A stretch of 64,000 bases of DNA from a virus: the IMG/VR virus record IMGVR_UViG_3300022751_000018, positions 1 to 64,000 of that record, one strand, 5' to 3'. A program made the translations under genes and the position numbers. Within the stretch, counting starts at the first letter, position 1; the number at the start of each line of letters is the position of its first letter. Below, in pieces: positions 4,369 to 46,296 of this stretch. The notes beneath the pieces were generated by a model. The model did no database searches. It worked only from the letters and a program-made list of their open reading frames with translations, and was not told the DNA's origin.

Positions 4369-4384
4369 CTAAATAATCCTCATA

Positions 4385-7844: not shown

Positions 7845-9438
7845 TGTGTAGACCTCTTCTTTTATCTTGCTTAGCGAAACAAATTACGGCCGAATCGGCC
7901 CGATTTGGCGATTTTGTTCCATCCGGCTTTTTATCTACCATAATCTTTTTATCATTATCTTTCACAAATCTTGCCTGAGATAGCTCCATTCTTAATTGTG
8001 ATAAACCATCTATTTTACTTGAGATGGAAATAATTTCAGAAGGATCGCAGGGCTTATTAAATTTTATCCATCTGTATGTTAACTGAAAACGTCTTCTAAA
8101 TTCCATCCAGGCTTGCGCTTTTCTGTTTGCAAAATAATCCTTATTGGTAGGTTGGTTCGCTCCCTCTTCATAATATCCTCTATCGCAATATGGGTTTCCA
8201 TCTGGATCAATAACTTTTCCACTTCCGAGAAATGCAAAAACAGGTATTGATCTAATTCTATCTGATCTTGCTTGCGCGTTAAGAACCCTAGCATCTCCTC
8301 TTAATGCTCCGCCAAGACCTACTGCATCATAAGAGATTTCTTCATAATCAAAATCGCGACAAATTTGCATGGATTTTTCTAAGGTTATCATTAGGTCAAT
8401 TCCTTTCCCTGACCATTCATTTTGATATTCAAGCAAAAATGACTGCCTTCCAGTAAAGCAATTTTTATCTGCACCTTGATCGCTGACATCCAGTCCAGCC
8501 AATCTTGGCCCTGAAGGGGTTAATCCTAGTTTTATATGAGCATCAATACACTCATCAATCCATTCCTTAGGGATAATAATTCCCTCAATAGATCCGTAGT
8601 AATCCATCTCATACTCTTGAGCAAAACGTATTAGGCACTCCGCCTCTTCTTTTTTCTTATCGAACCATTCTTGAGTTTTCCGTGGGTCTGAATACCACGG
8701 GAAGCTAAATACCTCAATTTTTCCGCTGAAGCGTTTCCGAGCGAATAAATTGGATGGGCCGCAGGGGGTTGATAACGTTATTCGGCAGTTGGTAGATGCC
8801 ATGAGTGCAGCATCGACTAGTTCTTGATGAGGGTGGAACGCGCTTTCATCGTCCGCGTACATAGAGAATCGGTCTCCCCTGCCCATGTTGTCTCCTGACT
8901 CTCCTGATATATACGCCTGAGTCATCGGGAAATAAATACGCATATCGGCGCTGTGCTTGCGCTCATTCCAATCTCCTGCGAACTCTTTTGGTAAGTGTAT
9001 GATGAAGCGTCGAGCTTTAAACAACAGGGCGCGAGGCATCTTGGCATCGACGTATTCTTTTTTTCGAGAGCCAAAGCCGAAATGGAAGCCCTTGTTGAAT
9101 AAACACTTTGCAACCGCATACGCCACAGTTAATTCACTAATTCCAACATCACGGCTCTTCTCGACAAGAAGACTCTTTCTCTCTCTGAAGCATTCCTCGA
9201 ACTTTTCAATAAGCTCACGCTGACGGGGAAACAAGATGAAAGGCACCATGGCTGGCAGGCCACGCTCAGGATTACGTGGGTCATACGTGGTTCCCCAGTC
9301 ATTGATAAAATCAGCGGGATGCGTCTTGTAGTACTTCCATAGCTTTCTGAACTTATCTTTATCGCGGCGTAACTCTTGCAGTCGCTCAATGCGCTGCTTG
9401 AATATTTCTGCATAAAGTGGCTTTTTAAAGTCGAACAT
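7819..9438 (-). CDS. terL: terminase large subunit
   Basis: 539 aa. ATPase-type motif KSRDVGISELT. Acidic Walker-B-like MYADDESAF. C-terminal nuclease-like region (LAGLDVSDQGADKN). Confidence 0.75.
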   Translation of the reverse strand: MFDFKKPLYAEIFKQRIERLQELRRDKDKFRKLWKYYKTHPADFINDWGTTYDPRNPERGLPAMVPFILFPRQRELIEKFEECFRERKSLLVEKSRDVGISELTVAYAVAKCLFNKGFHFGFGSRKKEYVDAKMPRALLFKARRFIIHLPKEFAGDWNERKHSADMRIYFPMTQAYISGESGDNMGRGDRFSMYADDESAFHPHQELVDAALMASTNCRITLSTPCGPSNLFARKRFSGKIEVFSFPWYSDPRKTQEWFDKKKEEAECLIRFAQEYEMDYYGSIEGIIIPKEWIDECIDAHIKLGLTPSGPRLAGLDVSDQGADKNCFTGRQSFLLEYQNEWSGKGIDLMITLEKSMQICRDFDYEEISYDAVGLGGALRGDARVLNAQARSDRIRSIPVFAFLGSGKVIDPDGNPYCDRGYYEEGANQPTNKDYFANRKAQAWMEFRRRFQLTYRWIKFNKPCDPSEIISISSKIDGLSQLRMELSQARFVKDNDKKIMVDKKPDGTKSPNRADSAVICFAKQDKRRGLHSARIGNIR

Positions 9439-9564
9439 TAAGCCTTCAATTGATTTATTTTTTACATTAGATCAAATTTAAACCATTAATTGATATAAAT
9501 ATAGACCTATCTGGTAGAGATAAGTGGTAGAAATGAAATTAATTAGAATTAATCGCAAAATCTA

Positions 9565-9593
9565 TTGCATACTTATCAGTGGAGTGGTACTAT
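9565..9593 (+). promoter_or_regulatory. sigma70-like promoter (TTGCAT, 17-nt spacer, TACTAT) preceded by the conserved ATCGCAAAATCTA box
   Basis: Member of a repeated promoter family (see findings). Points toward the tRNA cluster. Confidence 0.4.
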
Positions 9594-10191
9594 TTGTTTG
9601 TCGGTGGTTAGCGTGGTTTTTATTAGTTACATGCTGATAATCGACAAAGAGCCTAGCGTATGACTATCTCTTTAAATGGGAGTCATACCCATGCTATTGA
9701 CGAATAGCATTAGCTTTATGGATTTCGGGGTAAATTCACGCGGTCTGCGAGATGGACGATGTTAGTTGCTATTTATCATCTATAATAAATAGATACAGTT
9801 TTTTGAAAGATTAATTACTGTTCCGTCGATACTCTGCGGAGAAATTTAACTTTCAGACAACGTGTTGTAAGTTTGCAGTCTTAAAAATTGAAACTTTCTA
9901 GCTGAAGTAATTGATCAGCGAAAGAGTTGCTATTTCTCAACTAAAATAGCGGTGTACATTGTATGGACTTACACCTTAAAACTTATAAGAACATTCAGTG
10001 CATTTGTTAGTTTGGTACTTAAAATTAAATTATACTTTCTAACCTTCGCTTTCAGGGGACAATGTTTAAGACAATAATGAAGCTACGTTTTGCAAGTTTA
10101 CGGTAAATACAGGAAACTTCCACGAAATAACTGTTTACGGGTATTTCTACGGCTTTGCAAGTTTGCGCTAAACAGGAAACTTGAACTTTGT

Positions 10192-10264
10192 GCACGCATA
10201 GGCTCAGTTGGTAGAGCGGTTGGCTTAATGCTGGCGAGCGCTGGTTCGAGTCCAGCTGCGTGCA
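10192..10264 (+). tRNA. tRNA-like gene with canonical acceptor, D and T arms but an irregular anticodon stem. Loop is CTTAATG; anticodon uncertain, possibly UAA.
   Basis: Acceptor GCACGCA/TGCGTGC. D arm GCTCAGTTGGTAGAGC. T arm GCTGGTTCGAGTCCAGC. One extra nucleotide sits at positions 8-9, and the anticodon stem would need three G-U pairs. Confidence 0.45.
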
Positions 10265-10270
10265 ATTTAT

Positions 10271-10346
10271 GCAGACGTCGCCTAGTGGTTAAGGCACTTG
10301 CTTGTCAAGCAAGGTATCGTGGGTTCAAATCCCATCGTCTGCGCCA
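10271..10346 (+). tRNA. tRNA-Asp (anticodon GTC), CCA encoded
   Basis: Acceptor GCAGACG/CGTCTGC. D arm GCCTAGTGGTTAAGGC. Anticodon arm CTTGC-TTGTCAA-GCAAG. T arm GTGGGTTCAAATCCCAT. Ends GCCA. Confidence 0.8.
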
Positions 10347-10355
10347 ATTTATTAT

Positions 10356-10428
10356 GTGAGTATAGCTCAGCGGTAGTAGCAGCGGACTCATAATCCGTCG
10401 GTCAATGGTTCGAATCCATTTGCTCGCA
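10356..10428 (+). tRNA. tRNA-Met/Ile2 type (anticodon CAT)
   Basis: Acceptor GTGAGTA/TGCTCGC with two G-U pairs. Anticodon arm GCGGA-CTCATAA-TCCGT. T arm AATGGTTCGAATCCATT. Confidence 0.6.
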
Positions 10429-10434
10429 ATTATG

Positions 10435-10559: not shown

Positions 10560-10916
10560 ATGAACTTAGAATTAAATGAAGAAGAGTTTGATGCTTTATT
10601 GAATATGTGCATCATGGCACTAACAGTAGTGCAGCATAATGGCAATGTAACTCAGGATGAGATTCACATGAATGCGTTGTTTAACAAGATTGTTGCTTTA
10701 AAACCGAATCGAGATGAGTTTATTACAAATGAAAGATTTAATAGGCTTCATTATACTTTTTTTCATCCTTACCTTGATCATTTTAAAAACTTGCTTGATG
10801 AAGATGCAGAGCAGGCATTAGAAGTTAATGAAGTGGTTGATGCAGAGAATGTACAAGAGTTAGAGGAGCCGGTTGAGGCTGAGGTTATTAGAAATAATTT
10901 TTGGGGTAGATTATGA
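10560..10916 (+). CDS. hypothetical acidic protein
   Basis: 118-aa ORF, first gene after the tRNA cluster. Confidence 0.4.
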   Translation: MNLELNEEEFDALLNMCIMALTVVQHNGNVTQDEIHMNALFNKIVALKPNRDEFITNERFNRLHYTFFHPYLDHFKNLLDEDAEQALEVNEVVDAENVQELEEPVEAEVIRNNFWGRL

Positions 10917-11269
10917 AATTTTTAGAAGCGGCGAATAAGTTTAAAAAGATAAGGATGCCTAGCTGGTCAACTATATCTTTTGTAGAAAATGTTAATGGGT
11001 CATTAAAAATTAATTGCATGCTAACAACATCAGACCTTTCATCTGACGACTGGGAAGAATACAAAGAGCCACGCAAGTATCTTGAAAACAACAAGGAAGC
11101 TATGCAGGCTTTGATAGATGGCAAGAAGATTTCTAAAGACGCTTGGGGTGATGGTCGTTTTTTTACTCTTGATAAAGATGGATTTATAGTTGATAAGGAC
11201 GGTGATTATATTGATCCAACATGGCCCACCCCAAATTATCATGGCAAGTTTTATGTTGTTGAGGATTGA
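10913..11269 (+). CDS. DUF2829 (Tad2-like) family small protein
   Basis: N-terminus MKFLEAANKFKKIRMPSW fits the M.F.EAL..LK.GKK.RR..W pattern. DDWEEYKEPRKYL...AMQALIDGKK segment is shared with ORF 27913. Confidence 0.35.
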   Translation: MKFLEAANKFKKIRMPSWSTISFVENVNGSLKINCMLTTSDLSSDDWEEYKEPRKYLENNKEAMQALIDGKKISKDAWGDGRFFTLDKDGFIVDKDGDYIDPTWPTPNYHGKFYVVED

Positions 11270-12828: not shown

Positions 12829-13701
12829 ATGACACTACTAATCATCGGCCTGTTAGGCACAATCTCAGCTTTTCTATTCATGAACTTTTTCAATGATGGT
12901 CGAGGTAATGTATTTAAAAAATATCGATTATTCTCTTTGCTAATATTTGGATTCTTCTTTGCCTTAAGCGCGTGTACGATTATCCATCCGGGGAACATCG
13001 GCGTTAAATCGACTCTAGGTAAAGTTGACCCTATCTCATTGCCAGCGGGATTTTACTTCATTAATCCCGTGTCTGATGTTCAGCAAATATCAGTTAGATT
13101 AGATAAGGCATCATTAGAAAGCGCCACGGCTAGCACAAAAGATCTTCAGGTGGTTCACACTGATATCGTCGTTAACTATCGATTAGAGGGTGCTGACGTC
13201 GCCAATATCTACAAGAACTTTGGCTTTGATCTTAAAGACAAGGTTTTGCTGCCTGCGATTAATGAGTCATTTAAGGCGATTACAGCGCGATATAACTCAG
13301 AAGAGCTAATCACCAAGCGTGATGTCGTTTCGGCCGCTATCAAGCAGGAATTGCAAGATAAGGTGGTTAAATACGGTTTGTCTATTAGCGAGATCTCTTT
13401 GGTGAACTTTGGCTTCTCTCAAGAGTATCAATCGGCTATCGAACAAAAGGTTATCGCCACTCAAAGCAAGCTTAAGGCTGAGCAAGATCTACAGCGTATC
13501 AAGGTTGAAGCGGAGCAGAATATTGCTAAAGCACAAGGTGAGGCTGAGTCTATTCGCATTCAATCTGCGGCGATTGAAACAAGCGGCGGCGTTAACTACG
13601 TTCATCTTAAAGCAATCGAAAAATGGGATGGTCAATTGCCTGCGACAGTAGTCGGAGGCGAATCTATGCCGTTTGTTAATATTCCAAGTGTTAAAAAATA
13701 A
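12829..13701 (+). CDS. SPFH / band-7 (prohibitin / HflC-like) domain membrane protein
   Basis: N-terminal transmembrane helix, then an SPFH core (VKSTLGKVDPISLPAGFYFINPVSDVQQISV...VHTDIVVNYRL). C-terminal coiled-coil region (QSKLKAEQDLQRIKVEAEQNIAKAQGEAE). Confidence 0.65.
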   Translation: MTLLIIGLLGTISAFLFMNFFNDGRGNVFKKYRLFSLLIFGFFFALSACTIIHPGNIGVKSTLGKVDPISLPAGFYFINPVSDVQQISVRLDKASLESATASTKDLQVVHTDIVVNYRLEGADVANIYKNFGFDLKDKVLLPAINESFKAITARYNSEELITKRDVVSAAIKQELQDKVVKYGLSISEISLVNFGFSQEYQSAIEQKVIATQSKLKAEQDLQRIKVEAEQNIAKAQGEAESIRIQSAAIETSGGVNYVHLKAIEKWDGQLPATVVGGESMPFVNIPSVKK

Positions 13702-13712
13702 AGGACAAAAAA

Positions 13713-14111
13713 ATGATCACACTGCCAGATATAATGGAAAGATTAAATGAGGTTTTGAATGACAGCAATATGCGTATTGGAATTAACGAAATAAAAGTAA
13801 GTGATTTATTTATTCTAAATCTAAGGCATGACATAAGTATTATCGCAAAACGTATTATTAATCATAATTTCGGTTCTTTAGAAAAAGAAATCGGTGCGAA
13901 AAATACTGATGATGATAATAAAAATGAGGATTGCAAAAATTACATTAAACTTAATCCTTATTTAGCGCCTGATTATAAAGAACCTGTTAAATTTTCAAAA
14001 AAAGAAAAAATAAACATATCGGGCGGTATTTTTAGCTTAATATTAAATGCAGAGGATAAATCAGAAGAAAATTTTTTATATGGCCTAATGGATAAGGTGC
14101 GAGAACTATGA
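13713..14111 (+). CDS. hypothetical protein
   Basis: 132-aa ORF. Confidence 0.35.
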   Translation: MITLPDIMERLNEVLNDSNMRIGINEIKVSDLFILNLRHDISIIAKRIINHNFGSLEKEIGAKNTDDDNKNEDCKNYIKLNPYLAPDYKEPVKFSKKEKINISGGIFSLILNAEDKSEENFLYGLMDKVREL

Positions 14112-14605
14112 AAATTAAAGAATATATTTTTGTTTATCCAAAAGAAAGCAGTCTTGGAGGAATATGCTCAAGTCTTTTGCAAAATCAGGTCCTTGATGAA
14201 ATTAAAAATGGGTATGAACTTTACGGAACAACATTTTATTGCCATAGCAGAAAGCTTATGTGTCAAGCAATGGTAAAATACGAAGAAGAAAATACAGAAT
14301 CGGCCAAGAATTTTTATTCTGAAATTCGCAATCATGAAACATTTGAAGAGGCCACTATCCAAAGACTTTTTCACATGGATATAAAGCTAGATCATATTAA
14401 GGAAGCTTTAGTTAAAAAAATAGTAAAAATGCATGAGGAATCAAAGATAAAAGAACGAAAATTGGTCGATTGCTTTACTTCAGTAATAGCATGTGGAGAA
14501 GACAGCGTTTACTGTGAAAATACGAAGAAAAAACTATTATCTGATGGCTGGGAGATTATTGAAGATAATTATTTGTCCTTAAAAATGGTGAAGTATGACT
14601 CGTAA
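14108..14605 (+). CDS. small protein of a local paralog family (tandem domains each ending ..MVKYE/D)
   Basis: Internal ...CQAMVKYEEE and C-terminal ERKLVDCF...LSDGWEIIEDNYLSLKMVKYDS. Paralogous to 15893..16225. Confidence 0.4.
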   Translation: MKIKEYIFVYPKESSLGGICSSLLQNQVLDEIKNGYELYGTTFYCHSRKLMCQAMVKYEEENTESAKNFYSEIRNHETFEEATIQRLFHMDIKLDHIKEALVKKIVKMHEESKIKERKLVDCFTSVIACGEDSVYCENTKKKLLSDGWEIIEDNYLSLKMVKYDS

Positions 14606-14984: not shown

Positions 14985-15314
14985 ATGATTAACAATAAAA
15001 AACTTCCTGATGGATTTATTCAAATAGCGGGCTTTGATCCTGGGTATGGCGTTAACACTCGCGGCGAGATTTACTCATGCAAAACTGGTAAACTTCTTAC
15101 CAATAAATGCCTGTCTCACAACGGGCAAATAATTGTCGGATTGATGGACAACCGTTTTTGCAGATATGTTACGGTGGCAAGCATCATGATTCGCACATAT
15201 ATTGCATCTACATTTAACTGCAAATCATTTCAAGTGGTTCATCTCGATGGGGATAAATCTAATAACTCGATTGATAATCTTGATTTGAGAATTAATCTAA
15301 AAAGTAGAAAATAG
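14985..15314 (+). CDS. NUMOD4 / HNH_3-type homing endonuclease (small)
   Basis: IAGFDPGYGVNTRGEIYS (NUMOD4-like) and HLDGDKSNNSIDNLDL (HNH_3 motif). Confidence 0.55.
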   Translation: MINNKKLPDGFIQIAGFDPGYGVNTRGEIYSCKTGKLLTNKCLSHNGQIIVGLMDNRFCRYVTVASIMIRTYIASTFNCKSFQVVHLDGDKSNNSIDNLDLRINLKSRK

Positions 15315-15892: not shown

Positions 15893-16225
15893 ATGAAAGA
15901 AACGATGATTGATGGTTATTTCCTAGCTGGCAATGGAGATCAACAGTTTACACTGGAAGAAGCGGTGCAATGGGGCGGTGCCAGTGGGTATCAAATTCAC
16001 GGCTCTCCAATTGTTTTTAATGGTCGAATTATTCAGCCGATGATTCAGTATTATTCAGAAGAAGAAGAAGGTAAAGAGCGAAAGATAGTTGATTGTTTTC
16101 ATGTGGATGCTTTTTCAATGATTAATGTTGATTTTATTGAGAAATCTACATTAGAACTTAATGATGGCTGGGAAACAATTTACAAAGATAACTCTAAGCT
16201 AAAAATGGTGAAGTATGAATCATAA
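15893..16225 (+). CDS. small protein of the same local paralog family (..ERKIVDCF..NDGWETIYKDNSKLKMVKYES)
   Basis: Protein- and DNA-level similarity to the 3-prime end of 14108..14605. Confidence 0.4.
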   Translation: MKETMIDGYFLAGNGDQQFTLEEAVQWGGASGYQIHGSPIVFNGRIIQPMIQYYSEEEEGKERKIVDCFHVDAFSMINVDFIEKSTLELNDGWETIYKDNSKLKMVKYES

Positions 16226-16673
16226 AGTTAAATTCTTGAGTCTTCCAGAGGATTTCAAGGATGGCATAAAGTTTGCTCAATATAATTTTTCTACTTTTAG
16301 GGCTCTAAATAGTATGCAGCTAGTCCAAGTTTCTGGAACTACAGACCTATTTATAGCTCAATTTTGCAATAGTGGCGGATTTATGTTTCTTCTTGAGGAA
16401 TGTGAAGCGTCATTTCAGCAAAGCGGATTTCCTTTTGAGGTTTTGTGGAGCGCTGATCTTCCTGATTACATTTATCAGTCTATTGTTGAATGTGAAAAAA
16501 TAAAAGATTTTAGAATTTTTAAAACATTATGCGAGCTTGCCAGGCAAAGAAAAAAGAATGCAGGAGTTTCTATTCAACTGTCATTTAAAGAGCTTGGCCA
16601 GATAACAAGCAATAATATTTCAAAGGAGCTTAGATCTAAGCTTAATCAATATGCTGATAAGGAGTATGAATAA
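16215..16673 (+). CDS. hypothetical protein immediately upstream of rtcB
   Basis: 152-aa ORF whose stop/start junction with RtcB overlaps (..KEYE* / MNHKV). Confidence 0.4.
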   Translation: MNHKVKFLSLPEDFKDGIKFAQYNFSTFRALNSMQLVQVSGTTDLFIAQFCNSGGFMFLLEECEASFQQSGFPFEVLWSADLPDYIYQSIVECEKIKDFRIFKTLCELARQRKKNAGVSIQLSFKELGQITSNNISKELRSKLNQYADKEYE

Positions 16674-18796
16674 TGAATCACAAGGTAATCTCTGGATTAT
16701 TTCATAAGCCAATTAAAATGTGGACGAATGGTTTGTCAGTTGAAGACGATGCGCTGACTCAGTTGAAAAATACTGCGTCAATGTCATTTGTTCGCCCTCA
16801 TGTCTCCGTAATGCCCGATGTTCATCTAGGCAAAGGGTCAACGATTGGGAGCGTAATACCTACGCAAGGCGCGATAATTCCGGCAACAGTTGGTGTTGAC
16901 ATTGGATGCTTTGTTGGCGAAACAAAGATTCCTCTGCTTAATGGAACACAAAAAACTCTTAAAGAGCTGGCAGAATATACAGAGCCGTTTTGGGTTTATT
17001 CTTGCAGTAATTTTAAAGTTGTTGCAGGTAAAGCTACTTGTAAAAAAACCAGAAAAGATGCTGATCTAGTTAAAGTTACTATATCTGGAGGTGATGAAAT
17101 AATATGCACCCCAGATCATAAATTTATGTTATTTGATGGTAGCTATAAAGAAGCCAAGGATCTTTCATATAATGAAAGTCTAATGCCTCTTTATAGAAAA
17201 TGGCATAAAAAAGATGGCTATGAAAGCTCTAACTGTGGATACAACACATCAAATTTGACTCATTGGGCATCATGGGAATCTATACATGGAGAAATACCCA
17301 AGGGATATGTTATTCACCACAGAGATCATTTTTATCTTAACAATGATCCAGATAATTTAGAGGCAATGACTGCAAGAGATCATTCAAAGCATCATAGGTT
17401 GGACAATCAAACATTTGACAATTCAAGCGAAGAGTTTCAAAAATTAAGAATGGCAGGAATAAAAAGAAGAGTATCAGATCCTGTGTCTTTTGAGAAAATG
17501 GTCAAGGTTGGAACTGAAAATATTAAAAAATACATGGAAGAGTCAAGAGAGGATTTTCTCGACAAGGTGAAGGATAATGGAAAAAGAGGGGCGCCATATT
17601 TACATAAATTTAATACGTCGCCACGCTCATGTGATGAATGCGACCATACTTCTAAGAACCCAGCGGCATTAAATTGGCATAAAAGAAAAGAGCATGGTAG
17701 TAATCATAGGGTCATTTCTGTAGAAAATCTTGGATTTAAGGATGATGTATATTGTCTAACAGTAGAAGACCATCACAACTTTGCATTATGCGCGGGTGTT
17801 TTTGTTCATAATTGCGGAATGATGGCCATTAAAACATCTTTGATGGCTTCAGATCTTCCCGATAACTTATTTGGCATTCGGTCGGCAATTGAATCGGCCG
17901 TTCCCCATGGTAGAAATGGCGGCCAAGGTCGAGACAAGGGAGCCTGGGGAAATATTCCACATGGAATAAGAAATATTTGGAATGCACAACTTTTAACTGA
18001 TTTTTATAAAATAGTCGATAAATATCCTTCACTTAGAAAGACTAACAATGACAATCACTTAGGAACTCTAGGCACGGGAAACCATTTTATTGAGCTCTGC
18101 ATCGATGAAGATAGTCATGTCTGGGTTATGTTGCACTCAGGATCTCGCGGCGTAGGCAATGCGATAGGCACGTTATTCATTGAGTTAGCAAAGAAAGACA
18201 TGCAGCGTTATTTCATTAACTTACCTGATGTCGATTTAGCTTATCTGCCAGAAGGATCTGTTTATTTTGACGATTACATCTTTGCATTAAATTGGGCTCA
18301 GAAGTTTGCAGCGTTGAATCGTGAAATCATGATGGATAATGTCTTGTCAGCGCTTCACTCAATCATAACGAAGAAATTCTGCTGTCTCGAAGAAGCAATA
18401 AACTGCCATCACAACTACGTTCAAAAGGAGCATCATTTTGGAAAAAATCTTTGGATTACTCGTAAAGGCGCTGTGTCTGCCAAGGAATCTCAGTTGGGAA
18501 TTATTCCTGGCAGCATGGGCGCTAAAAGCTTTATTGTTCGAGGTCTTGGCAATGCCGATTCGTTTCATTCGTGCAGTCATGGCGCGGGAAGGGTAATGAG
18601 CCGAACTCAGGCTAAAAAAATAATAACGCTTGATGATCATATCAAAGCCACGAGTCATGTCGAGTGCAGAAAGGATGAAGATGTGATCGACGAGTCACCG
18701 TCTTGTTACAAAGATATTGATTCAGTCATGGCGGCTCAGCCTGATTTGGTTGAAATTGTTCATACACTACGACAAGTAGTCTGTGTTAAGGGGTAA
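16673..18796 (+). CDS. rtcB: RtcB-family RNA 3-prime-phosphate/cyclase-end ligase, interrupted by an intein
   Basis: Extein motifs: MPDVHLGKGSTIGSV, GVDIG|C..., GTGNHFIELC, CSHGAGR. The spliced extein totals 78 + 328 aa. Confidence 0.85.
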   Translation: MNHKVISGLFHKPIKMWTNGLSVEDDALTQLKNTASMSFVRPHVSVMPDVHLGKGSTIGSVIPTQGAIIPATVGVDIGCFVGETKIPLLNGTQKTLKELAEYTEPFWVYSCSNFKVVAGKATCKKTRKDADLVKVTISGGDEIICTPDHKFMLFDGSYKEAKDLSYNESLMPLYRKWHKKDGYESSNCGYNTSNLTHWASWESIHGEIPKGYVIHHRDHFYLNNDPDNLEAMTARDHSKHHRLDNQTFDNSSEEFQKLRMAGIKRRVSDPVSFEKMVKVGTENIKKYMEESREDFLDKVKDNGKRGAPYLHKFNTSPRSCDECDHTSKNPAALNWHKRKEHGSNHRVISVENLGFKDDVYCLTVEDHHNFALCAGVFVHNCGMMAIKTSLMASDLPDNLFGIRSAIESAVPHGRNGGQGRDKGAWGNIPHGIRNIWNAQLLTDFYKIVDKYPSLRKTNNDNHLGTLGTGNHFIELCIDEDSHVWVMLHSGSRGVGNAIGTLFIELAKKDMQRYFINLPDVDLAYLPEGSVYFDDYIFALNWAQKFAALNREIMMDNVLSALHSIITKKFCCLEEAINCHHNYVQKEHHFGKNLWITRKGAVSAKESQLGIIPGSMGAKSFIVRGLGNADSFHSCSHGAGRVMSRTQAKKIITLDDHIKATSHVECRKDEDVIDESPSCYKDIDSVMAAQPDLVEIVHTLRQVVCVKG
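16907..17812 (+). other. intein (302 aa) inserted at the catalytic Cys of the RtcB GVDIGCGM motif; carries an HNH endonuclease plus a zinc-finger domain
   Basis: Starts CFVGETKIPLLNG and ends VFVHN followed by CGMMAIK. Internal HNH motif YVIHHRDHFYLNNDPDNLEAMTARDHSKHH and zinc finger CDECDHTSKNPAALNWHKRKEH. Confidence 0.8.
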
Positions 18797-18799
18797 AAA

Positions 18800-19120
18800 A
18801 TGAAATGGTTAGCAATTACAGAAACAGAGCCAGAGCCTAATAGGTTGGTTATATTCAGAGCTATTAAGAGGGATGATGATAAATCTTTATTTAAAGGATG
18901 CGCATCATTTCCGACAAAATTAGACCCTATTCCATGCGAGATTGGCTATTTTGTTTCAAGATATAGCAATATAGAGGGAACTTTTTTTATATTACGAGGA
19001 GTTCAAAAAGAAAATTTCAATAAGCTAATTGAATTTAAAGTTGAGCTTTGGGGCATGGGTGAAAAGCACCAATTCTGTTACTTGGATGAAGAAGAGCTAG
19101 GGGATAAAAATGTTAGTTGA
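18800..19120 (+). CDS. hypothetical protein
   Basis: 106-aa ORF. Confidence 0.35.
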   Translation: MKWLAITETEPEPNRLVIFRAIKRDDDKSLFKGCASFPTKLDPIPCEIGYFVSRYSNIEGTFFILRGVQKENFNKLIEFKVELWGMGEKHQFCYLDEEELGDKNVS

Positions 19121-20822
19121 GCTAAGCGAAAAAGAAATACTATTGGTGGATTTTCTTTTAAATAATTTTGGATATAGAGATGATTACATTAACTATGATG
19201 ATGAATCTTATGACCCAGAATTGCTAGAAATAATGAAAAATAGGTTCGACAATATTTTATTAGCTAGAGTTGGGGTCAATAATGAATGATAAATTAGAAT
19301 TATTAGCCGAGCATTCAATAATCAATAAAATAGAAGAAGATGATGAGAATTTATTCATAATGACTAAAATTGGAATACATGAACTAAGAATTGTAATCAG
19401 AAAGCATGATAGCGGCAATCAGCTTGATGAAATAGATATCTATATAAACAGAAATAATTGCTTTATTGGCGATAAAGAAGATATTCAGATAGCAAATATT
19501 GATCTTGGTTTTATAAGAAAAATGCTACCCGTCTGTGAGCTAATAGAGGATTACTCAAAAAATGAAACCGTTTAAATTTAGAGTCTGGGATAATCAAAAC
19601 AAGAATTTTGACCTAACAGATCAATGTTTTATTTCAAGTGAAGGAAGAATTTACCATAAATCTGCTTATATATGCGTTGATATTACAGATCGTATTGATA
19701 TTGAAATATCCTACTCAATCGGACTTTTCGACAAAAATGATAAACAAATATTCGAAGGGGATGTATTTCATTATGGAGACTGTAATTACTTAGTAAAATA
19801 TTGCTCATACAGCGCTAGATTTATAATGCGCCACTTCGATTATGATGATGAATATGATTTTAATGATATGGAAGATTGGAATGATGTTGAAATAATCGGA
19901 AACAGATTCGAAAACCCCGAAATTTTGGATAAATTAAAGTGAAAGTTTACTATAAATATGATGGCATTATAGAAATAGAAGGCGTGAAAGTTCCGATGTC
20001 ATTTTTCAATGAAGAGAAAGACAAAGAGTATTTTTCAATGACTGATATGTTTCCTGGCGTTTATGACAAAGGAATGATTACGGACCGAAAATTAACCATG
20101 ATAAAAAATAAATATTTGGAGAGCTTTAAATGAACATAGAAGACAAAAAACTAGACCTTGAGATAATGAAAAAATGGCGAGAAGAATCAAGGAAACAAAC
20201 TCTTGAAACCTTGCCTGCATTTATTGAGGAAATTAAAAGCTATAAGCACTGCTATAGCTCTATAGTAACCGGCATGGCTTCGGCGGCTAATGCGACAATA
20301 TCAGCGTTAGATAGAAGTGAATGCGGAGGAATAACAGGATTTCAATCGGTCTGCCTTATGTGGGAGATGGTTGGTTTATTGACTTTTAAAGAAGGCCCCA
20401 TGAAGCTTATTTCATTTGAAGATATGCTTTATCCTCAGAATGAAGAAAAATTCTCAAAAGTAATGACAAAAAAAACGTTTGAATGTTTGCAAGATAAAGC
20501 AACAGAACTCTTGAAAGACAAAATGTTTTCAGCGCATCCAGACGTTAAAAAACACTGGCAATCTATTGTTGATGGCGTTGTTCCGTTTGGTTATGAGATT
20601 GAGTATTTAAAATGAAAGAAGTAACTATTAATTGTAAAAATTTAACGCCTTTACCAAGTTATAAAAACAGTGATCTATGGTTGATAGAGCTTGTTAAGGA
20701 ATTAGAGGCCGAAGAGGCATTTAAATTGGGGCTTTCTCATATCCATTTCAGCGTTTCTGCAAAGACCTATTCTAAAATGATAAAAGTGGGTAACTTTTTT
20801 TACGACATACAAATAAATAAGA

Positions 20823-21200
20823 GTGAAAATTATGCCTAAATTAAAAAAAATATTGTGCATTGTTGGCGTGGTAGTTTTTGTCCCCTTTGCGATGCTTTCT
20901 TCTTGCGACACATCGGTAGGACAAAGAGTAGGAGTTATTGTCAAGGTAGCCGATGAAGGTAAGTTCATGAAAACGCATGAGGCTGAATTGATTAGAGGCG
21001 GCATGAGCAACGGTGGCGGCGCGTTTGGGGCCAAGCCTTTTGACTTTACGATCAGTAATTCAAAGGTCTACAAAGACGCCATGCGTGCGATGCAGACACA
21101 GCATGAAGTAAACGTTAGTTACCACTGCGAACTGTACTCTTTCCACTTTTCAAACACGGCGGATAATTGTTTCGCTGATAACATAACGGAGATTAAATAA
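20823..21200 (+). CDS. putative lipoprotein
   Basis: Signal peptide ending in the lipobox LSSC (MKIMPKLKKILCIVGVVVFVPFAMLSSCDTS). Confidence 0.45.
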   Translation: MKIMPKLKKILCIVGVVVFVPFAMLSSCDTSVGQRVGVIVKVADEGKFMKTHEAELIRGGMSNGGGAFGAKPFDFTISNSKVYKDAMRAMQTQHEVNVSYHCELYSFHFSNTADNCFADNITEIK

Positions 21201-21382
21201 TGAACATAGCTATTTTTGTAATTGTTACTATGTACATGCTGCTTGGAATTGTTGGCGCCATGGGTCATCGGAAGGCTGCCGGAGAAGATCTTCAAGCAAA
21301 GAAAACTCTTGCGATTATTTGGGTCATGATGATCCCACTTTTCATTTTGTCTTTGATTAAACTTTTTATAGGATAAAATTAA

Positions 21383-21613
21383 ATGAACCTATTTGATGCT
21401 CATAATAATCATTTAATGAACGGTAGAAAAATAAAGGCATCGCATTGGCGAAAAGATTCTTTTCTTCAAGAGAGGAAAATTGAAACTTATTTTTGCGGAC
21501 AATATGGCGAAAATACTTGCATAGTAGATCAAGATGGAAGGTTTGTTTCTCATTTTTACAAAGACTATTGGCCTCGTGAATATTACATGTACGAATGGGA
21601 GGTTGTTGAATGA
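21383..21613 (+). CDS. DUF2829 (Tad2-like) family small protein
   Basis: MNLFDAHNNHLMNGRKIKASHW ... EWEVVE. Confidence 0.3.
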   Translation: MNLFDAHNNHLMNGRKIKASHWRKDSFLQERKIETYFCGQYGENTCIVDQDGRFVSHFYKDYWPREYYMYEWEVVE

Positions 21614-21775
21614 ACACATGGGTTTTAATAATTCAGCTTAGTTTGTCTCAATATAATAGCATTATCACTATTCCTAACTTTAATTCTCAATCTACATGCC
21701 AGAAACAGGCTGATTATTTAACCAGAAGCCAAAATTTACCTCGAGCGTTCTGCATAGAAACAGACTCAAAGTTTT

Positions 21776-21799
21776 AAAGGTGTCGAATTCGACACCTTT
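21776..21799 (+). terminator. perfect palindromic hairpin AAAGGTGTCGAATTCGACACCTTT
   Basis: 9-bp stem and 4-nt loop in an intergenic region. Only a short T tract follows. Confidence 0.35.
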
Positions 21800-21837
21800 A
21801 CATCAACAAATCATCGCATTATTTATTGCAATATCCA

Positions 21838-21866
21838 TTGACAATACATATCGGTAAGTATACACT
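21838..21866 (+). promoter_or_regulatory. consensus-like promoter: TTGACA, 17-nt spacer, TACACT, with an upstream ATCGCATTA box
   Basis: Read directly from the sequence. Confidence 0.45.
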
Positions 21867-21891
21867 GATAAAAATTAAAAAGGAGATTGAA

Positions 21892-21948
21892 ATGTGCCCG
21901 TTACTAATAATTATCGCCTTCTGTGTAGTTGTGGATCTGATTAAATGA
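21892..21948 (+). CDS. 18-aa hydrophobic micro-ORF (MCPLLIIIAFCVVVDLIK) overlapping the start of the next gene
   Basis: Strong RBS AAAGGAGATTGAAATG. Its stop overlaps the ATG of the HNH_3 gene (AAATGATT). Confidence 0.25.
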   Translation: MCPLLIIIAFCVVVDLIK

Positions 21949-22415
21949 TTTTAAATACTTTGGAAGGATTTATTTGTATAAAAGGGTTTGAAGGGTACTA
22001 TTCATTAAATGATAATGGAGATGTTCTCTCAGATAAAAGAAGAGTTCTTTTAAGAAGAAGAGGGCCATCAAAAAGTAGTGTTACGTTAAGCAAAAATGGA
22101 GAAAAAAAATGTTTTTCCGTATCAAGTTTAGTCGTTGAACATTTTAGTGATATTTCCTTGAAAAATAAAAGAAATTTAGTTTTTGATTACATAGATGGAA
22201 ATTCCCATAACAAAAACATTAAAAACATAAGAATAGTTAAAAGAAGCCCTTTTAAAAAAAACTATAAAGATAACTTATTTAAAAAAAGAGTATTAAACAA
22301 TTTAGACAAAATCTGTTTTTTTAGCATAAGATCGGCAGCTAAATTTTATAAAAAAGAACCAATATCAATAAAATATAAGTGTAAAAATAAAATAAAAGGA
22401 TTTCAGTTTATATGA
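21945..22415 (+). CDS. NUMOD4 / HNH_3-type homing endonuclease
   Basis: GFEGYYSLNDNGDVLS and DYIDGNSHNKNIKNIRIV. Confidence 0.55.
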   Translation: MILNTLEGFICIKGFEGYYSLNDNGDVLSDKRRVLLRRRGPSKSSVTLSKNGEKKCFSVSSLVVEHFSDISLKNKRNLVFDYIDGNSHNKNIKNIRIVKRSPFKKNYKDNLFKKRVLNNLDKICFFSIRSAAKFYKKEPISIKYKCKNKIKGFQFI

Positions 22416-22828
22416 AAATATACATACTCATGGCGTCACAGGGTGAATATTCTGATAGAGAAGAAACTCCCGTTAAAGCTTATTTAACCAGGGAGAAGGC
22501 AGAAGCAGCATTGCTGAAGGCTGACGAAGAAGAAAGGGTTCATCGGTATAAGCATAGCCTAGATAATGATTACTGTATTAATCCTGATGATCCATGGTTT
22601 GAAGAAACAACATATTTTATTAACGAAGTGGAGCTAGAGGAATGAAATTTTTAAAATTAAGTAATGCAGATGGGTCTATTGATTTGGTTAATCTTGATTC
22701 CGTTGTCGCTATTTTTGAGGCCCCGAGATCATCAGGTCTAATCATATTTTCTCTAATTGGCGGTAAGAATTATGAGTATAAAGCTTCATCATCATTAATG
22801 GCTCAGGAATTTATAAAAGGAATATTCG

Positions 22829-23287
22829 ATGAAAACAGTCATATTTGACCTAGACGGAACGTTGGCGGATGTATCCCATAGGAGACGTTTTAAAGACGAT
22901 GGCTCGTTTGATTGGAAGTATTTTAATGATCCTGAGAATATTAAGAATGACACTCCTAATAAGCCTATAATTGATTTATACAATCATTTTAGGCTTGGAG
23001 AAAAATACAAGTCTGTTGTTCTATCAGGAAGGATGAAGGATCATTTTGATATAACCGTTGATTGGTTTAGAAAGCATGTTGATGCTTACATGTTGATATC
23101 TCACACCATTATTATGAGAGAAATTGGAGACTATCGAGAAGACTATATCATCAAGAAAGAAATGCTAGATAATTTGCTAAGCAAAGGCCACGAAATAGCA
23201 TTCGCAATCGATGATCGGGATCAGATCGTAGAGCTATGGCGTAGTCTTGGTATTACTTGTCTTCAGTGTGCTAAGGGGAATTTTTAA
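22829..23287 (+). CDS. HAD-superfamily phosphatase (Pnk 3-prime-phosphatase-like / nucleotidase-like)
   Basis: Motif I VIFDLDGTLADV. Motif II-like VVLSGR. FAIDDRDQ. Confidence 0.6.
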   Translation: MKTVIFDLDGTLADVSHRRRFKDDGSFDWKYFNDPENIKNDTPNKPIIDLYNHFRLGEKYKSVVLSGRMKDHFDITVDWFRKHVDAYMLISHTIIMREIGDYREDYIIKKEMLDNLLSKGHEIAFAIDDRDQIVELWRSLGITCLQCAKGNF

Positions 23288-26200
23288 ATGATTTTAGCCC
23301 TGTACTTTATTATTGGAGCGGTTATCTCTTTTTATTTTACAAAATATGTTGCTAAACCTGATCTTGAAAGGGTAGAGGATGATTTCATGATTGGGCTTGT
23401 GTTTATTGTAATAATGATAGTTTGGCCAGCTATTTTTATAGTTTCTTTACTATTGTTTACTTGTAATTTTATTGGAAAATTATTTTAACAAAGGGGGATT
23501 TTTGATGGACCACATAGCAAGAGATATCATTGATGTTATGTACACTCATAATTGCAATATTTGGCACAGCTCTACCGGAGATTATCTGGAAAGAGGGTGC
23601 GAAAATAAATCTGGACTTGAAGAAAGGCTAAGAAATGTAAAAGATCAGTCTAAACAGCTTCATAAAAAATTAATTGAGTTATCAGAGCATTTAAAACATA
23701 CAGGAGTGCTTTGATGAACAAAAAAGACTATGAATTTAAAATAGCTAGGCTCGAAGAAAAAATAGAAATCCTGGCTGATTGTATCATTACAATGGGGCAA
23801 CATTTTGATACTTCTCCCATGACAACTAATGAATGGCGAAACTTATTCCTGGAGCTTCAGGCCATGATTTTCAGAGGAGGAGAATTACCAGGCGGAAAAA
23901 AAATTGCTCATTATGAATGTAAATATAAATGATTACAGGAGTTTTGAATGAGAAAAGTAACTAAGGAAGAGGTGCTTCATTATCTTGCGAAGAACCAAGG
24001 CAAATGGAATATGTTTTTTGAGATAGAGCATGAGTTAGGCATAGAGCCACGATCAGGATGTGGCCCTAATAAGCGTCATGCAGTAACGCTGAGAAAACTT
24101 TATAAATCTGGAATGATAGGCGGGTGCATTTGCGGTTGCAGAGGTGATTTTGATATCACTGATAAGGGTTTGGAATTTATTGGAATTGAAAGATATGCTG
24201 AATATCATGGATATTAGCTTTATAAAACAGTTTTTCTGTAAGCATAAATTTCAGTTTACACATGAAATTATTGATTATTATGGGAGTTACAGGGGTCGAG
24301 ATGTTTATAAGCATGGCGGATTCAATACATGCGAATTATGCGCAAAAAGAAAGAGGATGTATTAAATGAAAAAAAATCAAGTATGGGTTGAATATGACTC
24401 GCAAACAAATTCTATTAGTCTTGATAATATTAACGTGGTAGAAAGACAGCAGAGATCGTATTGTCCTTCTATTTCAAATCCTGATGTACTATCAGAAGAA
24501 TACAAAATGGATATAAAAAATTACTGTCTTCTGGAGTTTTCTGTTGACGATAGAATAGATAGAGAAAATTTAGCATTAGAGGTATTCGAAAGAATAAAAA
24601 AAGAGATGCTAAATTATTCTCAGCCTGATCTAAAAAGATTTAGAGAGTCGTTGCTTATGGTTGCATATTCAGTATATCCAAAAATGTTCTGCCCTAGTGA
24701 CAAAGCCATTTTTGATAAAATGAATGAACTAAGGAGGCTAGCAGAATGAAAAAAACCAGCTTCCTATGTACCTTCCTTCTCTGTTGGATAATATGCACGC
24801 TGATTATGTCGATAATATATCATTTACCTGCGTTAGTTTTGGCATCAATTTTATGCCTTGCTGTTCTTGTAATAGTTGAAAATTCAGATAAAAAAGGAAA
24901 ATGAAATGAAGAAATACGATGTCACTATATGCAGCAAAGCTTCATATAATCTAACTATCATGTCTGAATCTGAGGATCAGGCATTAAGAGACGCAGTAAA
25001 ATTTATGGAAGGACAGGATTTTTATTATAATGGAATATCTATAGGCAATTTCAATTTCAATATAACCGATACTTTTGTCGGAGAGGCTTAATTATGAACC
25101 ACCATGAATCATACGCTTTACAAAAAGAACGTGAGCTTGACGAAATAAGAAACACAGATGAATTTATAGCCCTTTCCTTTGAAGAAAAAAACAGAAGGAC
25201 AATGGAGTTTTTAGAGGCTAACTTCACTATTAAGCGACCTACTAAAGTTATTCAAGACATATCTTGAGTCTCAATTAATTTATATTATATCGCTATAATC
25301 CTTTACTTATTTATCGCATTATGATAATCTATTCATGATCAAATAATAAAAGGCGAACAAATGCTAAACTTACGAATAAACAAAACAGAACACGAAACTT
25401 TGCTTGATATGATGTCACTTGCAATGATGGTCGCATACGAAGCTGGTGCTGATGATGCTCATTATAGAAGCATGACATCTATGTATAACACAATCCTGGA
25501 AATGAGTCATGATAGAAAAAACGCTCTGTCAGACGAAAAGCTTGACATGCTTCAGGATAAATATCTTTTCCCTGCTTGCATGACTTTTTACAAGAAAATG
25601 AATGATGACATCAAAGAGGCGGTAGAAGTGGTTGCGGCACCTATCGAGTCGCAGGTGATTCGATGATTAAAGAAACTATACTTGCTTATGCGCTTTTGTG
25701 TGATTCTAGCGGGTTCAGCGTGGACAGCGCATTAATCGGCCTTAATGCGCAAGTTAAACAACATATTCAAGAAGGCTGGCAGCCCTTTGAATCTCCTTTA
25801 AAATCTGCTCAATCAATGACAGTTTGCCAAGCCGTCGTTAAATATCAGGAGTAGCTCATGCTTGTCGCTCACCCAAGAACAGAGAAACAATTTATCGATG
25901 ACATCACATGCAGACTTGAACAAATAATAAATATTTCTTCAGAAATGAAGCGTGATATAGATAGAATTAAGTGGTATAAATTCCAAATTGATAGTTTGAA
26001 TAAAAATATTTCTTTTCTAACAGAGGATTTTGACAGCTTCATTGAGATTCTTAAATATGAGAAATAACGATGCAATATGGAAAAGGATATTATCTCCTCA
26101 AGATCCTGTGGTTACTGAAGATGACATATTTTACAGAGAATCATTAGAAAGATTGCATAAGAATGGAATTAGCTATTGGGCTGAACAATTCGAGCAAAAA

Positions 26201-27912: not shown

Positions 27913-28284
27913 ATGAACATATATGAAGCAAGTATAAATTTCGAAAAAATAAGAAGAAAGGGATGGCCTACGAAAAATTATCTTATATTAGGATTTAATA
28001 CGAAGATGTTTGAATCAAATTCTATAGATAATGATCAGTATTCTTTATCTTGGGATCAATTACGAGCCAATGACTGGGAAGAGTACAAAGAGCCTAAAAA
28101 GTATTTGACGACTAAAGAGGCTATGCAAGCATTGATTGACGGGAATAAGTTGCAAGCAGATAACTATGATGAAGATATCTTTATTTATCTTTGCGATCAA
28201 GGTCATATTTTGTTTAATCATGGGGCCGAGGCTTTTCCATGTTTCAGCAAAGATAGACAGTTTTACATATACGAGGGTGAATAA
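27913..28284 (+). CDS. DUF2829 (Tad2-like) family small protein, paralog of 10913
   Basis: MNIYEASINFEKIRRKGW. NDWEEYKEPKKYL..KEAMQALIDGNK. Confidence 0.35.
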   Translation: MNIYEASINFEKIRRKGWPTKNYLILGFNTKMFESNSIDNDQYSLSWDQLRANDWEEYKEPKKYLTTKEAMQALIDGNKLQADNYDEDIFIYLCDQGHILFNHGAEAFPCFSKDRQFYIYEGE

Positions 28285-37097: not shown

Positions 37098-37170
37098 GCG
37101 ATAGTAGCTCAATTGGCAGAGCGCCTGGTTTCCACCTAGGAGGTTGCACGTTCAACTCGTGTCTGTCGCT
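37098..37170 (+). tRNA. tRNA-Gly (anticodon TCC)
   Basis: Acceptor GCGATAG/CTGTCGC. D arm GCTCAATTGGCAGAGC. Anticodon arm CCTGG-TTTCCAC-CTAGG. T arm GCACGTTCAACTCGTGT. Confidence 0.7.
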
Positions 37171-37177
37171 AATCTTT

Positions 37178-37251
37178 CCGTCAATCGTATAATGGCATTA
37201 CCTTGGCCTCCAAAGCCAAAGATTTGAGTTCGATTCTTAATTGACGGGCCA
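37178..37251 (+). tRNA. tRNA-Trp (anticodon CCA), CCA encoded
   Basis: Acceptor CCGTCAA/TTGACGG. Anticodon arm TTGGC-CTCCAAA-GCCAA. T arm TTGAGTTCGATTCTTAA. Ends GCCA. Confidence 0.7.
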
Positions 37252-39805: not shown

Positions 39806-40000
39806 TTAAGGATCAAGGCCAAGCTCGGCGCATCTCTGTGCGTACAATTCATAATCTGTAAATGTTTCCATTTCCTCAAGACCCGTAGTCATACACTGGT
39901 CCGGGTCTACTTTTCCATTAGCGTAAATAGTTTCGTTTTCATTGACCACCGTGTACGCAATAAAATACGTAGTTACAAGTGGATAGTTGATTTCGTGCAT
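39806..40000 (-). CDS. hypothetical small protein downstream of the fibre genes (possible fibre assembly factor)
   Basis: 64-aa ORF whose start overlaps the upstream stop. Confidence 0.3.
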   Translation of the reverse strand: MHEINYPLVTTYFIAYTVVNENETIYANGKVDPDQCMTTGLEEMETFTDYELYAQRCAELGLDP

Positions 40001-45869: not shown

Positions 45870-45870
45870 A

Positions 45871-46296
45871 ATGACAAAAATTATTGAACTTAAAATGTCG
45901 ATAACAGAAGAGAATCTAAAAATTATTCGTGATGCACTTTGTATGTCATTGCATATTTTATATACTCCACAGCATTTGGAGGGTAAAATATCTGAAGAAT
46001 TTATCCAACTAAGAGATAAATACTACTCAGCCATTGTTAGCGAGGTTAAGGATATTAACTCAGTCCTTAACTATGGAGATAGCGAAACACTGCTTTCCGT
46101 TGAAGATAATAAGCTTTTAAATTCCAAATTTTTTGGGCCTTATATAAAGCAAGTTTCCTCTAATGTCTGCTTACATGCTTTTAGCACTGCATTTAGCGAT
46201 AAACTTATTAATGACTCAGTGACAACACTTTTACAAATTCCAGAATCAGAATGGAACCCAGCAATAACAACACAGGAACAAAAAGAAAATGACTAA
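45871..46296 (+). CDS. hypothetical protein
   Basis: 141-aa ORF. Confidence 0.35.
   Translation: MTKIIELKMSITEENLKIIRDALCMSLHILYTPQHLEGKISEEFIQLRDKYYSAIVSEVKDINSVLNYGDSETLLSVEDNKLLNSKFFGPYIKQVSSNVCLHAFSTAFSDKLINDSVTTLLQIPESEWNPAITTQEQKEND

Follow-up and report, generated by a model that had tools for sequence, protein, structure and literature searches.

Genomic context of the rtcB gene

The window analysed here is the whole 64,000-nucleotide stretch formed by positions 1 to 64,000 of the IMG/VR virus record IMGVR_UViG_3300022751_000018, and it covers all but ~4 kb of a 68.4-kb contig from an uncultivated phage with a G+C content of 35%. Its feature of interest is a plus-strand open reading frame (ORF) for an RNA ligase of the RtcB family into which an intein is inserted, and which a first-pass annotation of the sequence had combined with a HAD phosphatase and with tRNA genes into a single RNA-repair toolkit. 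The window is phage DNA, with a set of head genes on the minus strand at 1.4-9.4 kb (major head protein, protease, head-morphogenesis protein, portal, and large terminase) and baseplate and tail genes, also on the minus strand, at 56-63 kb. Of its 127 ORFs, ~83 form a block of mostly small, plus-strand genes at 9.5-39.9 kb, hereafter the early block, nearly all of which lack any family match; rtcB, the HAD phosphatase, and all five tRNA genes lie on the plus strand inside this block. No close isolated relative was identified, as a megablast search of the 16-24 kb region against INPHARED returned zero matches, and the portal protein is at most 39% identical to the portals of Pantoea phage Kyle and Pseudomonas phage PA5. 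A promoter and terminator scan of the 9.4-24 kb region yielded counts equal to those of shuffled sequence, and transcription units can therefore not be inferred in this region.

The components of the rtcB gene are as follows:

16673..18796, plus strand: rtcB precursor ORF, 707 aa, comprising N-extein, intein, and C-extein (ORF, Pfam, and NCBIfam NF052663).
16673..16906, plus strand: N-extein, aa 1-78, ending in GVDIG and including D49, H51, and D76 (alignment to PDB 1uc2/4dwq; residues invariant in 44 homologues).
16907..17812, plus strand: class-1 intein, 302 aa, Cys79 to Asn380 (PF14890, TIGR01445/TIGR01443, conserved residues, and Foldseek).
17258..17386, plus strand: HNH_3 homing-endonuclease core, precursor aa 196-238 (PF13392, E 3e-12).
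17630..17695, plus strand: C2H2-type zinc finger, C320-x2-C323-x12-H336-x4-H341 (ligand conservation and AlphaFold2 model).
17813..18796, plus strand: C-extein, aa 381-707 plus stop, including Cys381, N470/H471, H488, H580, and H636 (alignment, conservation, and Foldseek).

A predicted RNA ligase restored by intein removal

The motifs from which the gene had originally been recognised as rtcB are all present in the precursor, namely MPDVHLGKGSTIG at aa 47, GTGNHFIE at aa 467, and CSHGAGR at aa 634, and an identical protein (P0001) has been recorded from a metagenomic contig of 68.4 kb. When the unspliced precursor is compared to the Pfam RtcB profile, the match falls into two pieces. A family search on the spliced extein, which the first-pass annotation had proposed as a check, instead recovered the full-length domain, the 405-aa product matching PF01139 from end to end (profile positions 1-426/426, E 4.5e-125). 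An AlphaFold2 model of the precursor (mean pLDDT 85) likewise retrieved the human and Pyrococcus horikoshii RtcB structures with a Foldseek probability of 1.00.

We compared the active site to that of P. horikoshii RtcB, in which one Mn2+ ion is bound by Cys98/His234/His329 and the other by Asp95/Cys98/His203 (PMC10630183). Based on alignment to PDB 1uc2 and 4dwq, and numbering residues in the spliced protein, D49/H51 correspond to D65/H67 of the archaeal enzyme, D76 to D95, C79 (precursor Cys381) to C98, N168/H169 (precursor N470/H471) to N202/H203, H186 (precursor H488) to H234, H278 (precursor H580) to H329, and H334 (precursor H636) to H404, i.e. the histidine that is guanylylated. Within an alignment of 44 intein-containing RtcB proteins gathered from a 5.8-billion-protein collection, both the two-metal site and the guanylylated histidine are invariant or nearly invariant. 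Taken at the level of sequence, the gene is thus predicted to encode an Escherichia coli-type RtcB 3'-phosphate/5'-OH RNA ligase that is intact after removal of the intein. P. horikoshii RtcB (PH1602) shares both the catalytic residues and an insertion at the homologous Cys, but its extein is archaeal, only ~25% identical in a structure-based alignment, and has a known role in tRNA splicing.

The extein is closer to ordinary bacterial proteins, with 64-70% identity to chromosomal RtcB of Proteobacteria (Lysobacter, Sphingomonas, Pseudomonas, Morganella, and Gilliamella). RtcB was also detected in 705 INPHARED phage records, 624 of which match in a single uninterrupted piece. Among phage proteins, RtcB from jumbo phages (the Caulobacter phiCbK group, Pseudomonas phage D6, and Acinetobacter phage MD-2021a) is 60-64% identical to the extein and has the same presumed role in RNA repair alongside phage tRNAs, but these genes are uninterrupted, unlike the one described here. 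The G+C content at third codon positions (GC3) is 0.39 for the extein (z = +1.6) and 0.25 for the intein (z = -0.9), for a phage mean of 0.30; neither is an outlier, and the difference is suggestive of different histories for the two parts.

The surroundings of rtcB yielded few additional clues. The two flanking ORFs, at 16215-16673 and 18800-19120, where an archease-like partner was sought, had no Pfam match and no homologue in five related loci, and no neighbour of rtcB was conserved when these five homologue-bearing loci (three of them phage-like) were compared ORF by ORF. The junctions preceding ORF 16215 (16195-16240) and rtcB (16653-16700) are alike, both reading ...GTATGAAT[C/A]ATAA..., with both products starting in MNHKV and each start overlapping or abutting the stop of the preceding ORF. 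These shared junctions may represent a recurrent cassette boundary, or may be due to chance.

Position of the intein and splicing residues

The 302-aa intein that had been proposed at the catalytic Cys is confirmed with exact boundaries, GVDIG(78)/C79FVGETK...VFVHN380/C381GMM (slashes marking the splice junctions), at nt 16907-17812, the C-extein opening in CGMMAIK. It was detected by the Pfam Intein_splicing profile (PF14890, E 4e-27) and by TIGR01445 and TIGR01443, which describe the N- and C-terminal splicing regions. Foldseek further assigned it to the HINT fold, with matches to the NpuDnaB intein (TM-score 0.85, normalised to target) as well as to the SspDnaB and Mtu RecA inteins. The earlier description of the ligase as "intein-split" stands insofar as an intein does interrupt RtcB, but the element is a contiguous cis-splicing intein encoded within a single ORF and not a split intein.

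The insertion point, GVD[IL]G/C...VFVHN/CGM, is common to 44/44 homologues, as are Cys79 (Cys1), T146, H379, N380, and the +1 residue Cys381, while the block-B histidine H149 (T146-P-D-H149) is found in 41/44. The intein directly precedes the metal-ligand Cys, which itself serves as the +1 residue. This residue aligns with P. horikoshii Cys98, a ligand of both Mn2+ ions in the archaeal enzyme (PMC10630183) and the splice junction there (PMC4150793), so that the position was correctly described as the classic RtcB intein site. Since the 302 intervening residues part the ligands D76 and C381, it can soundly be expected from the sequence that RtcB would be active only after splicing.

Position 4 of block F is occupied by Cys361, invariant in 44/44, in place of the Asp that is usual, though not obligatory, in class-1 inteins. 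A class-3 intein was considered on account of this Cys, but the invariance of Cys1 and the lack of both partner residues, with F151 at position B:12 in place of Trp and V378 at position G:5 in place of Thr, led to its rejection.

Predicted homing endonuclease and mobility of the intein

The reading of the intein as carrying an HNH endonuclease and a C2H2-like zinc finger holds for both modules. The HNH_3 match (46.5 bits against a cut-off of 24.8) includes H216, N224, N228, H237, and H241, all present in 36/36 full-length members of the family, as well as H215, present in 35/36. The Pfam zf-C2H2 match is sub-threshold (15.8 bits against a cut-off of 25.2). We nevertheless consider the finger as real because its ligands C320, C323, H336, and H341 are each conserved in 38-41 of the 44 homologues and because the AlphaFold2 model displays a strand-strand-helix arrangement in this region (strands at aa 318-319 and 326-327, then a helix at aa 330-341). 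The finger is probably a DNA-binding module of the endonuclease.

Within the family, intein length ranges from 326 aa down to 128 aa, with 7/44 being mini-inteins devoid of nuclease, and one protein includes a second insertion further on. Judged from sequence, this gradation is what would be expected of a decay series in a homing cycle. In addition, intein and extein identities are decoupled. Compared to Corynebacterium P0067, P0095, and P0047, exteins are 43-48% and inteins 55-62% identical (44% and 58%, respectively, for P0067), while the order is reversed for P0050, P0052, and P0066, with exteins 60-63% and inteins 41-43% identical (63% and 41%, respectively, for P0050).

At the nucleotide level, the fused intein-less site reads ACAGTTGGTGTTGACATTGGA followed, across the insertion point, by TGCGGAATGATGGCCATTAAA. 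Across 69 intein-less alleles, the codons for V-G-V-D-I-G/C-G-M-M deviate from those of the window at third positions only, the other two being equal, and the codons flanking this core vary more. The site is therefore suited to a homing nuclease.

Distribution and prior knowledge of the allele

All of the best 120 protein clusters combine RtcB with the intein, and overall the allele is present in more than 120 clusters. It occurs in cyanobacteria (Nostoc, Scytonema, Crocosphaera, and Microcoleus), in actinobacteria, including a Streptosporangiaceae genome, and in ~30 IMG/VR viral contigs; further viral contigs match the intein only, which suggests that the same intein family resides in other genes there. 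The nearest relatives, at 58-62% identity, are encoded on other metagenomic contigs, of which the four inspected comprise three phage-like and one bacterial-looking. Among the INPHARED matches listed, relatives of the intein reside in ribonucleotide reductase and dCTP deaminase, with at most 29% identity.

The intein-RtcB arrangement is already catalogued, with a known intein host, a known site, and an existing NCBI model. Residues 11-707 of the precursor match positions 11-626/626 of NCBIfam NF052663, "intein-containing RtcB" (RtcB_rel_intein2), with 662 bits (E 9e-199), the intein corresponding to profile positions 78-310. The curated cut-off of 1050 bits exceeds the scores of both the precursor and the named bacterial member P0067, and because the latter reaches only 619 bits, this cut-off delimits a narrow subgroup. 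Members of NF052663 (Corynebacterium halotolerans P0067, Nostoc, and Scytonema) have the same insertion point, GVD[IL]G/C...VFVHN/CGM, the same intein family (HINT, HNH_3, and C2H2 finger), and the same extein type, but are only 43-63% identical to the protein described here, which is carried by an uncultivated phage. Published surveys counted 27 inteins in bacterial and 10 in archaeal RtcB (PMC4760082), and RtcB inteins have been reported in actinobacteriophages, with in-frame HNH inteins described as known but uncommon (10.1101/2025.01.02.630785).

To place the allele in context, 163 other loci were fetched with the RtcB/intein query, most with RtcB and ~45 with the intein family only, and their flanks were scanned, with a limit of 10 kb on viral and metagenome loci and of 3 kb on genomes. 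A tblastn search of the 127 window proteins against these loci recovered RtcB, along with sporadic NAMPT, DUF2800, head-protein, terminase, and SPFH matches.

Two of these loci include noteworthy neighbours. In a related 73-kb phage contig (locus L003), positions 3460-7979 include a predicted tRNA-Lys(CUU) immediately upstream of Ro60/TROVE, and then the intein-containing RtcB and an endonuclease VII gene, and the intein-RtcB of this locus adjoins Ro60/TROVE, NAMPT, and NUDIX genes. What was called as a tRNA may instead be the tRNA-like domain of a Y-RNA, and the locus would then represent a phage version of the Rsr/Y-RNA/RtcB repair module of bacteria. Unlike the Rsr(Ro60)/Y-RNA/RtcB operon, the window includes no TROVE match, and an Rfam search over its whole length identified the five tRNAs only, with neither Y-RNA nor group I intron found. 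In locus L004, at 8230-9717, Pfam domains occur in the order DUF5131 - HNH_3 - DUF5131 (phage Gp37/Gp68-like) just upstream of intein-RtcB. The element interrupting DUF5131 may be a further HNH intein, or else an endonuclease inserted in frame.

The tRNA genes and the HAD phosphatase

The remaining components of the proposed toolkit are located at a distance from rtcB:

10191..10429, plus strand: tRNA-Leu(UAA), tRNA-Asp(GUC), and tRNA-Met(CAU), 6.2 kb upstream of rtcB (ARAGORN and Rfam).
22829..23287, plus strand: stand-alone T4 Pnkp-type HAD 3'-phosphatase, 152 aa (PF25109 and T4 Pnkp alignment).
37098..37251, plus strand: tRNA-Gly(UCC) and tRNA-Trp(CCA), 18.3 kb downstream of rtcB (ARAGORN and Rfam).

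The ligase had been described as lying next to a tRNA island, a loose wording given these positions, with ~17 ORFs separating the upstream tRNA set from rtcB. The most frequent Leu and Gly codons of the phage are UUA (35%) and GGA (39%), which are read by tRNA-Leu(UAA) and tRNA-Gly(UCC), respectively. Elsewhere, of 30 viral loci with intein-RtcB, 11 encode tRNAs no further than 10 kb away, including arrays of 31, 26, and 11, and in one viral locus a tRNA-Asp and a tRNA-Asn are encoded directly 3' of rtcB.

The small HAD phosphatase noted 4 kb downstream of rtcB could be verified and further specified. The ORF begins 4.03 kb past the rtcB stop codon and matches PF25109 (HAD_PNKP) along its entire length (114.6 bits, cut-off 27.6; E 5e-33). 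It also aligns end to end with residues 160-301 of T4 Pnkp (PDB 1ltq, 5uj0), i.e. the phosphatase domain of the pseT product. The catalytic residues are conserved, with D7/D9 (DxDGT), S66, and R68 corresponding to T4 D165/D167, S211, and R213, and D105, K109, and D128/D129 to T4 D254, K258, and D277/D278. By analogy, the enzyme most likely removes 3'-phosphates from DNA or RNA ends or from 3'-nucleotides. Homologues occur in 3072 phage records, where they mostly form the C-terminal half of a kinase-phosphatase, and T4 Pnkp itself includes a fused 5'-kinase; the protein described here, by contrast, stands alone and has no Rnl1 or Rnl2 partner in the window. A Walker A motif (G-x4-GK[ST]) is absent from all 127 window ORFs, and no kinase or RNA-ligase family is found among the Pfam and PHROG matches of the 83 early-block ORFs and the larger ORFs. 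Because there is neither a kinase nor an Rnl1 or Rnl2 ligase, healing and sealing of the T4 type could not be completed with the genes of the window.

Proposed mechanism and alternative readings

We consider it probable that the phage encodes, in its early region, an RtcB gene interrupted by a mobile class-1 intein, that this ligase likely acts in counter-defence repair, and that the HAD phosphatase and the tRNA genes are separate. Following translation of the 707-aa precursor, Cys79 would undergo an N-S acyl shift, the N-extein would pass to Cys381, and cyclisation of Asn380 would free the intein. The product would be a 405-aa RtcB in which Cys79 (spliced numbering) acts with D76, H169, H186, and H278 as Mn2+ ligands. 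By homology, the mature enzyme would be guanylylated on His334 with GTP, after which GMP would move to an RNA 3'-phosphate, or to a 2',3'-cyclic phosphate once opened, and attack by the 5'-OH end would reseal the break. Likely substrates would be tRNAs or other RNAs cut by metal-independent ribonucleases, which makes counter-defence the likely role. The HNH nuclease and C2H2 finger of the excised intein would in turn cut intein-less rtcB at the highly conserved GVDIG/CGMM-coding site, and repair of the cut allele would copy the intein in. The HAD phosphatase and five tRNA genes would be separate accessory genes of the same long early block.

Phage RtcB has been interpreted as a tRNA-repair enzyme (PMC7824862), and by analogy a counter-defence function against tRNA or RNA nucleases is a plausible and standard reading of such genes. 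Among the papers listed in searches of the literature library available, none shows a phage RtcB acting as an anti-defence factor, and we therefore infer this role. Several observations weigh against the reading we favour. The sequence itself is silent on the RNA substrate, and the proposed splicing, ligation, and endonuclease activities are predicted from conserved residues. The block-F Cys361 is a detail of the splicing mechanism that this reading leaves unexplained. As for the context, tRNAs are absent within 10 kb in 19 of the 30 viral intein-RtcB loci, and codon supply explains the Leu and Gly tRNAs of this phage as well as decoy or replacement does. Finally, the negative result for kinases and ligases spans the window, and ~4 kb of the 68.4-kb contig lies beyond it.

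A broader role of the ligase in RNA maintenance, i.e. repair of rRNA or mRNA cut by MazF-type or colicin E3-type nucleases, or in some other joining of nucleic-acid ends, is possible if rather unlikely. Bacterial RtcB is reported to repair 16S rRNA following MazF cleavage (PMC5416887) and ribotoxin-damaged ribosomes (PMC9304027), and the similarity of the extein to ordinary proteobacterial chromosomal RtcB would fit such a function. This possibility, however, overlaps with the counter-defence reading, as toxin-antitoxin RNases are themselves abortive-infection defences, and the two differ in the target and not in the chemistry.

We regard as improbable the original proposal that RtcB, the stand-alone phosphatase, and the tRNAs form one integrated module directed against tRNA restriction. 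These genes do all lie on the plus strand within the early block, RtcB and HAD_PNKP belong to the small number of enzymes recognisable in it, and phage RNA-repair sets that include ligases, end-healing enzymes, and tRNAs have been described (PMC7824862). In jumbo phages, however, such phosphatases track ATP-grasp ligases, along with kinases, and not RtcB (PMC7824862), and neither partner is found in the window. The genes are also dispersed, with 14 unrelated ORFs between rtcB and the phosphatase gene and the tRNAs 6 and 18 kb away. No HAD_PNKP homologue was detected by tblastn in the flanks of the 163 other RtcB or intein loci, and among isolated phages the host groups in which RtcB is concentrated are largely different from those of HAD_PNKP. 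The proposal also meets with a chemical conflict: a 3'-phosphatase turns a 3'-phosphate or 2',3'-cyclic phosphate end into a 3'-OH that RtcB cannot use, so that a Pnkp-type enzyme would destroy the substrate of the ligase. Given this substrate conflict, the lack of kinase and ligase, the absence of linkage across 163 loci, and the differing neighbours, we treat the HAD gene as probably an accessory gene independent of rtcB.

It is also improbable that the intein acts as a redox- or metal-gated switch (Cys79, Cys361, Cys381) that times the release of RtcB, and is hence domesticated and not purely parasitic. The invariance of Cys361 at block F position 4 (44/44) in the absence of the class-3 partner residues would be compatible with such gating, as would the fact that the +1 Cys is itself a Mn2+ ligand, and if true this would mean that an RNA ligase is released only under particular intracellular conditions of infection. 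There is however no direct evidence of a switch, the graded decay to mini-inteins and the decoupled identities are of the kind that a purely selfish homing element would produce, and most phage RtcB proteins lack an intein, as in the 624 of 705 records with an uninterrupted match. Lastly, a decaying remnant with a non-splicing intein or inactive ligase is highly improbable, since the only argument for it is the general one that genes can be inactivated by mobile insertions, while the 707-aa frame is uninterrupted and the splicing residues, metal ligands, guanylylation His, and HNH residues are intact and conserved across the family.

Other mobile and accessory genes in the window

Several genes elsewhere in the window are candidates for a role in counter-defence. 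Two paralogous plus-strand ORFs (10913-11269 and 27913-28284, 37% identical) resemble Tad2 (anti-Thoeris), with Pfam scores of ~21 bits against a cut-off of 25 bits. One early-block ORF matches an Acb2/Tad1-hairpin profile (E 3.8e-6), and its coordinate was not located in 40 single-ORF scans, ~30 of them in the early block. A NAMPT gene (50144-51820, plus strand; phrog_448, E 4e-189) is preceded by a weak PRPP-synthetase-like ORF (49073-49894); the pair looks like an NAD-salvage or NAD-reconstitution module of the type proposed to act against NAD-depleting defences. In loci L003 and L101, too, a NAMPT gene is found together with intein-RtcB. The context of rtcB would fit an accessory region rich in counter-defence genes, and also fits the published tRNA-repair view of phage RtcB (PMC7824862).

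The phage carries several selfish nucleases. Free-standing HNH-type, homing-endonuclease-like ORFs were identified on the plus strand at 14985-15314, at 21945-22415, and in the N-terminal part of 54049-54741, the last of which also includes a YozE_SAM_like domain. The HNH_3 match of ORF 14985-15314 is exactly at the cut-off, identity is 28-31% for the pairs 14985/21945 and 21945/54049, and early-block ORFs have matches to several PHROG HNH families. None of these free-standing ORFs displayed a detectable relation to the HNH domain of the intein. A DUF2800/PD-(D/E)XK nuclease gene is apparently split as well (45132-47353, plus strand), with ORF 45132-45869 matching profile positions 6-242/368 and ORF 46703-47353 positions 255-337. 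The ~830 bp between the two halves include three small ORFs without Pfam match and no Rfam intron, and locus L006 encodes an intact 431-aa homologue. The split may reflect another mobile insertion or a decayed gene.

Further accessory genes include an SPFH/Band-7 protein at 12829-13701 (E 2.5e-30) and three small paralogous plus-strand ORFs (14108-14605, 15893-16225, and 25663-25854) that share a C-terminal DGWE...LKMVKY[DE]S motif and have weak DUF1737 matches. ORF 20823-21200 displays a signal-peptide-like N-terminus and the highest GC3 in the window (0.48), and probably encodes a lipoprotein as judged from its sequence. An early-block ORF matches phrog_200 "lipoprotein" (E 1e-53), and we infer that this is the ORF at 20823-21200. 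Finally, the two tandem paralogues at 40000-42449, which are 38% identical and one of which includes DUF285 repeats, are possibly tail fibres.

Significance

The current understanding of RtcB as a catalogued intein host across all domains and in phages is unchanged by these results. The locus offers a clean, fully intact case in which an RNA-repair ligase of a phage is invaded at its catalytic metal site by a mobile HNH intein. The intein family displays every stage of the homing cycle, from full-length elements to 128-aa mini-inteins. The locus also corrects the earlier annotation, in that a Pnkp-type phosphatase and tRNAs should not be assumed to be partners of RtcB. As a compact cis-splicing Cys-Cys intein, the element may be of use for engineering. 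Beyond this, it is a possible model system for the homing of inteins among co-infecting phages, as well as for the idea that phage RtcB counters RNA-cleaving defences.

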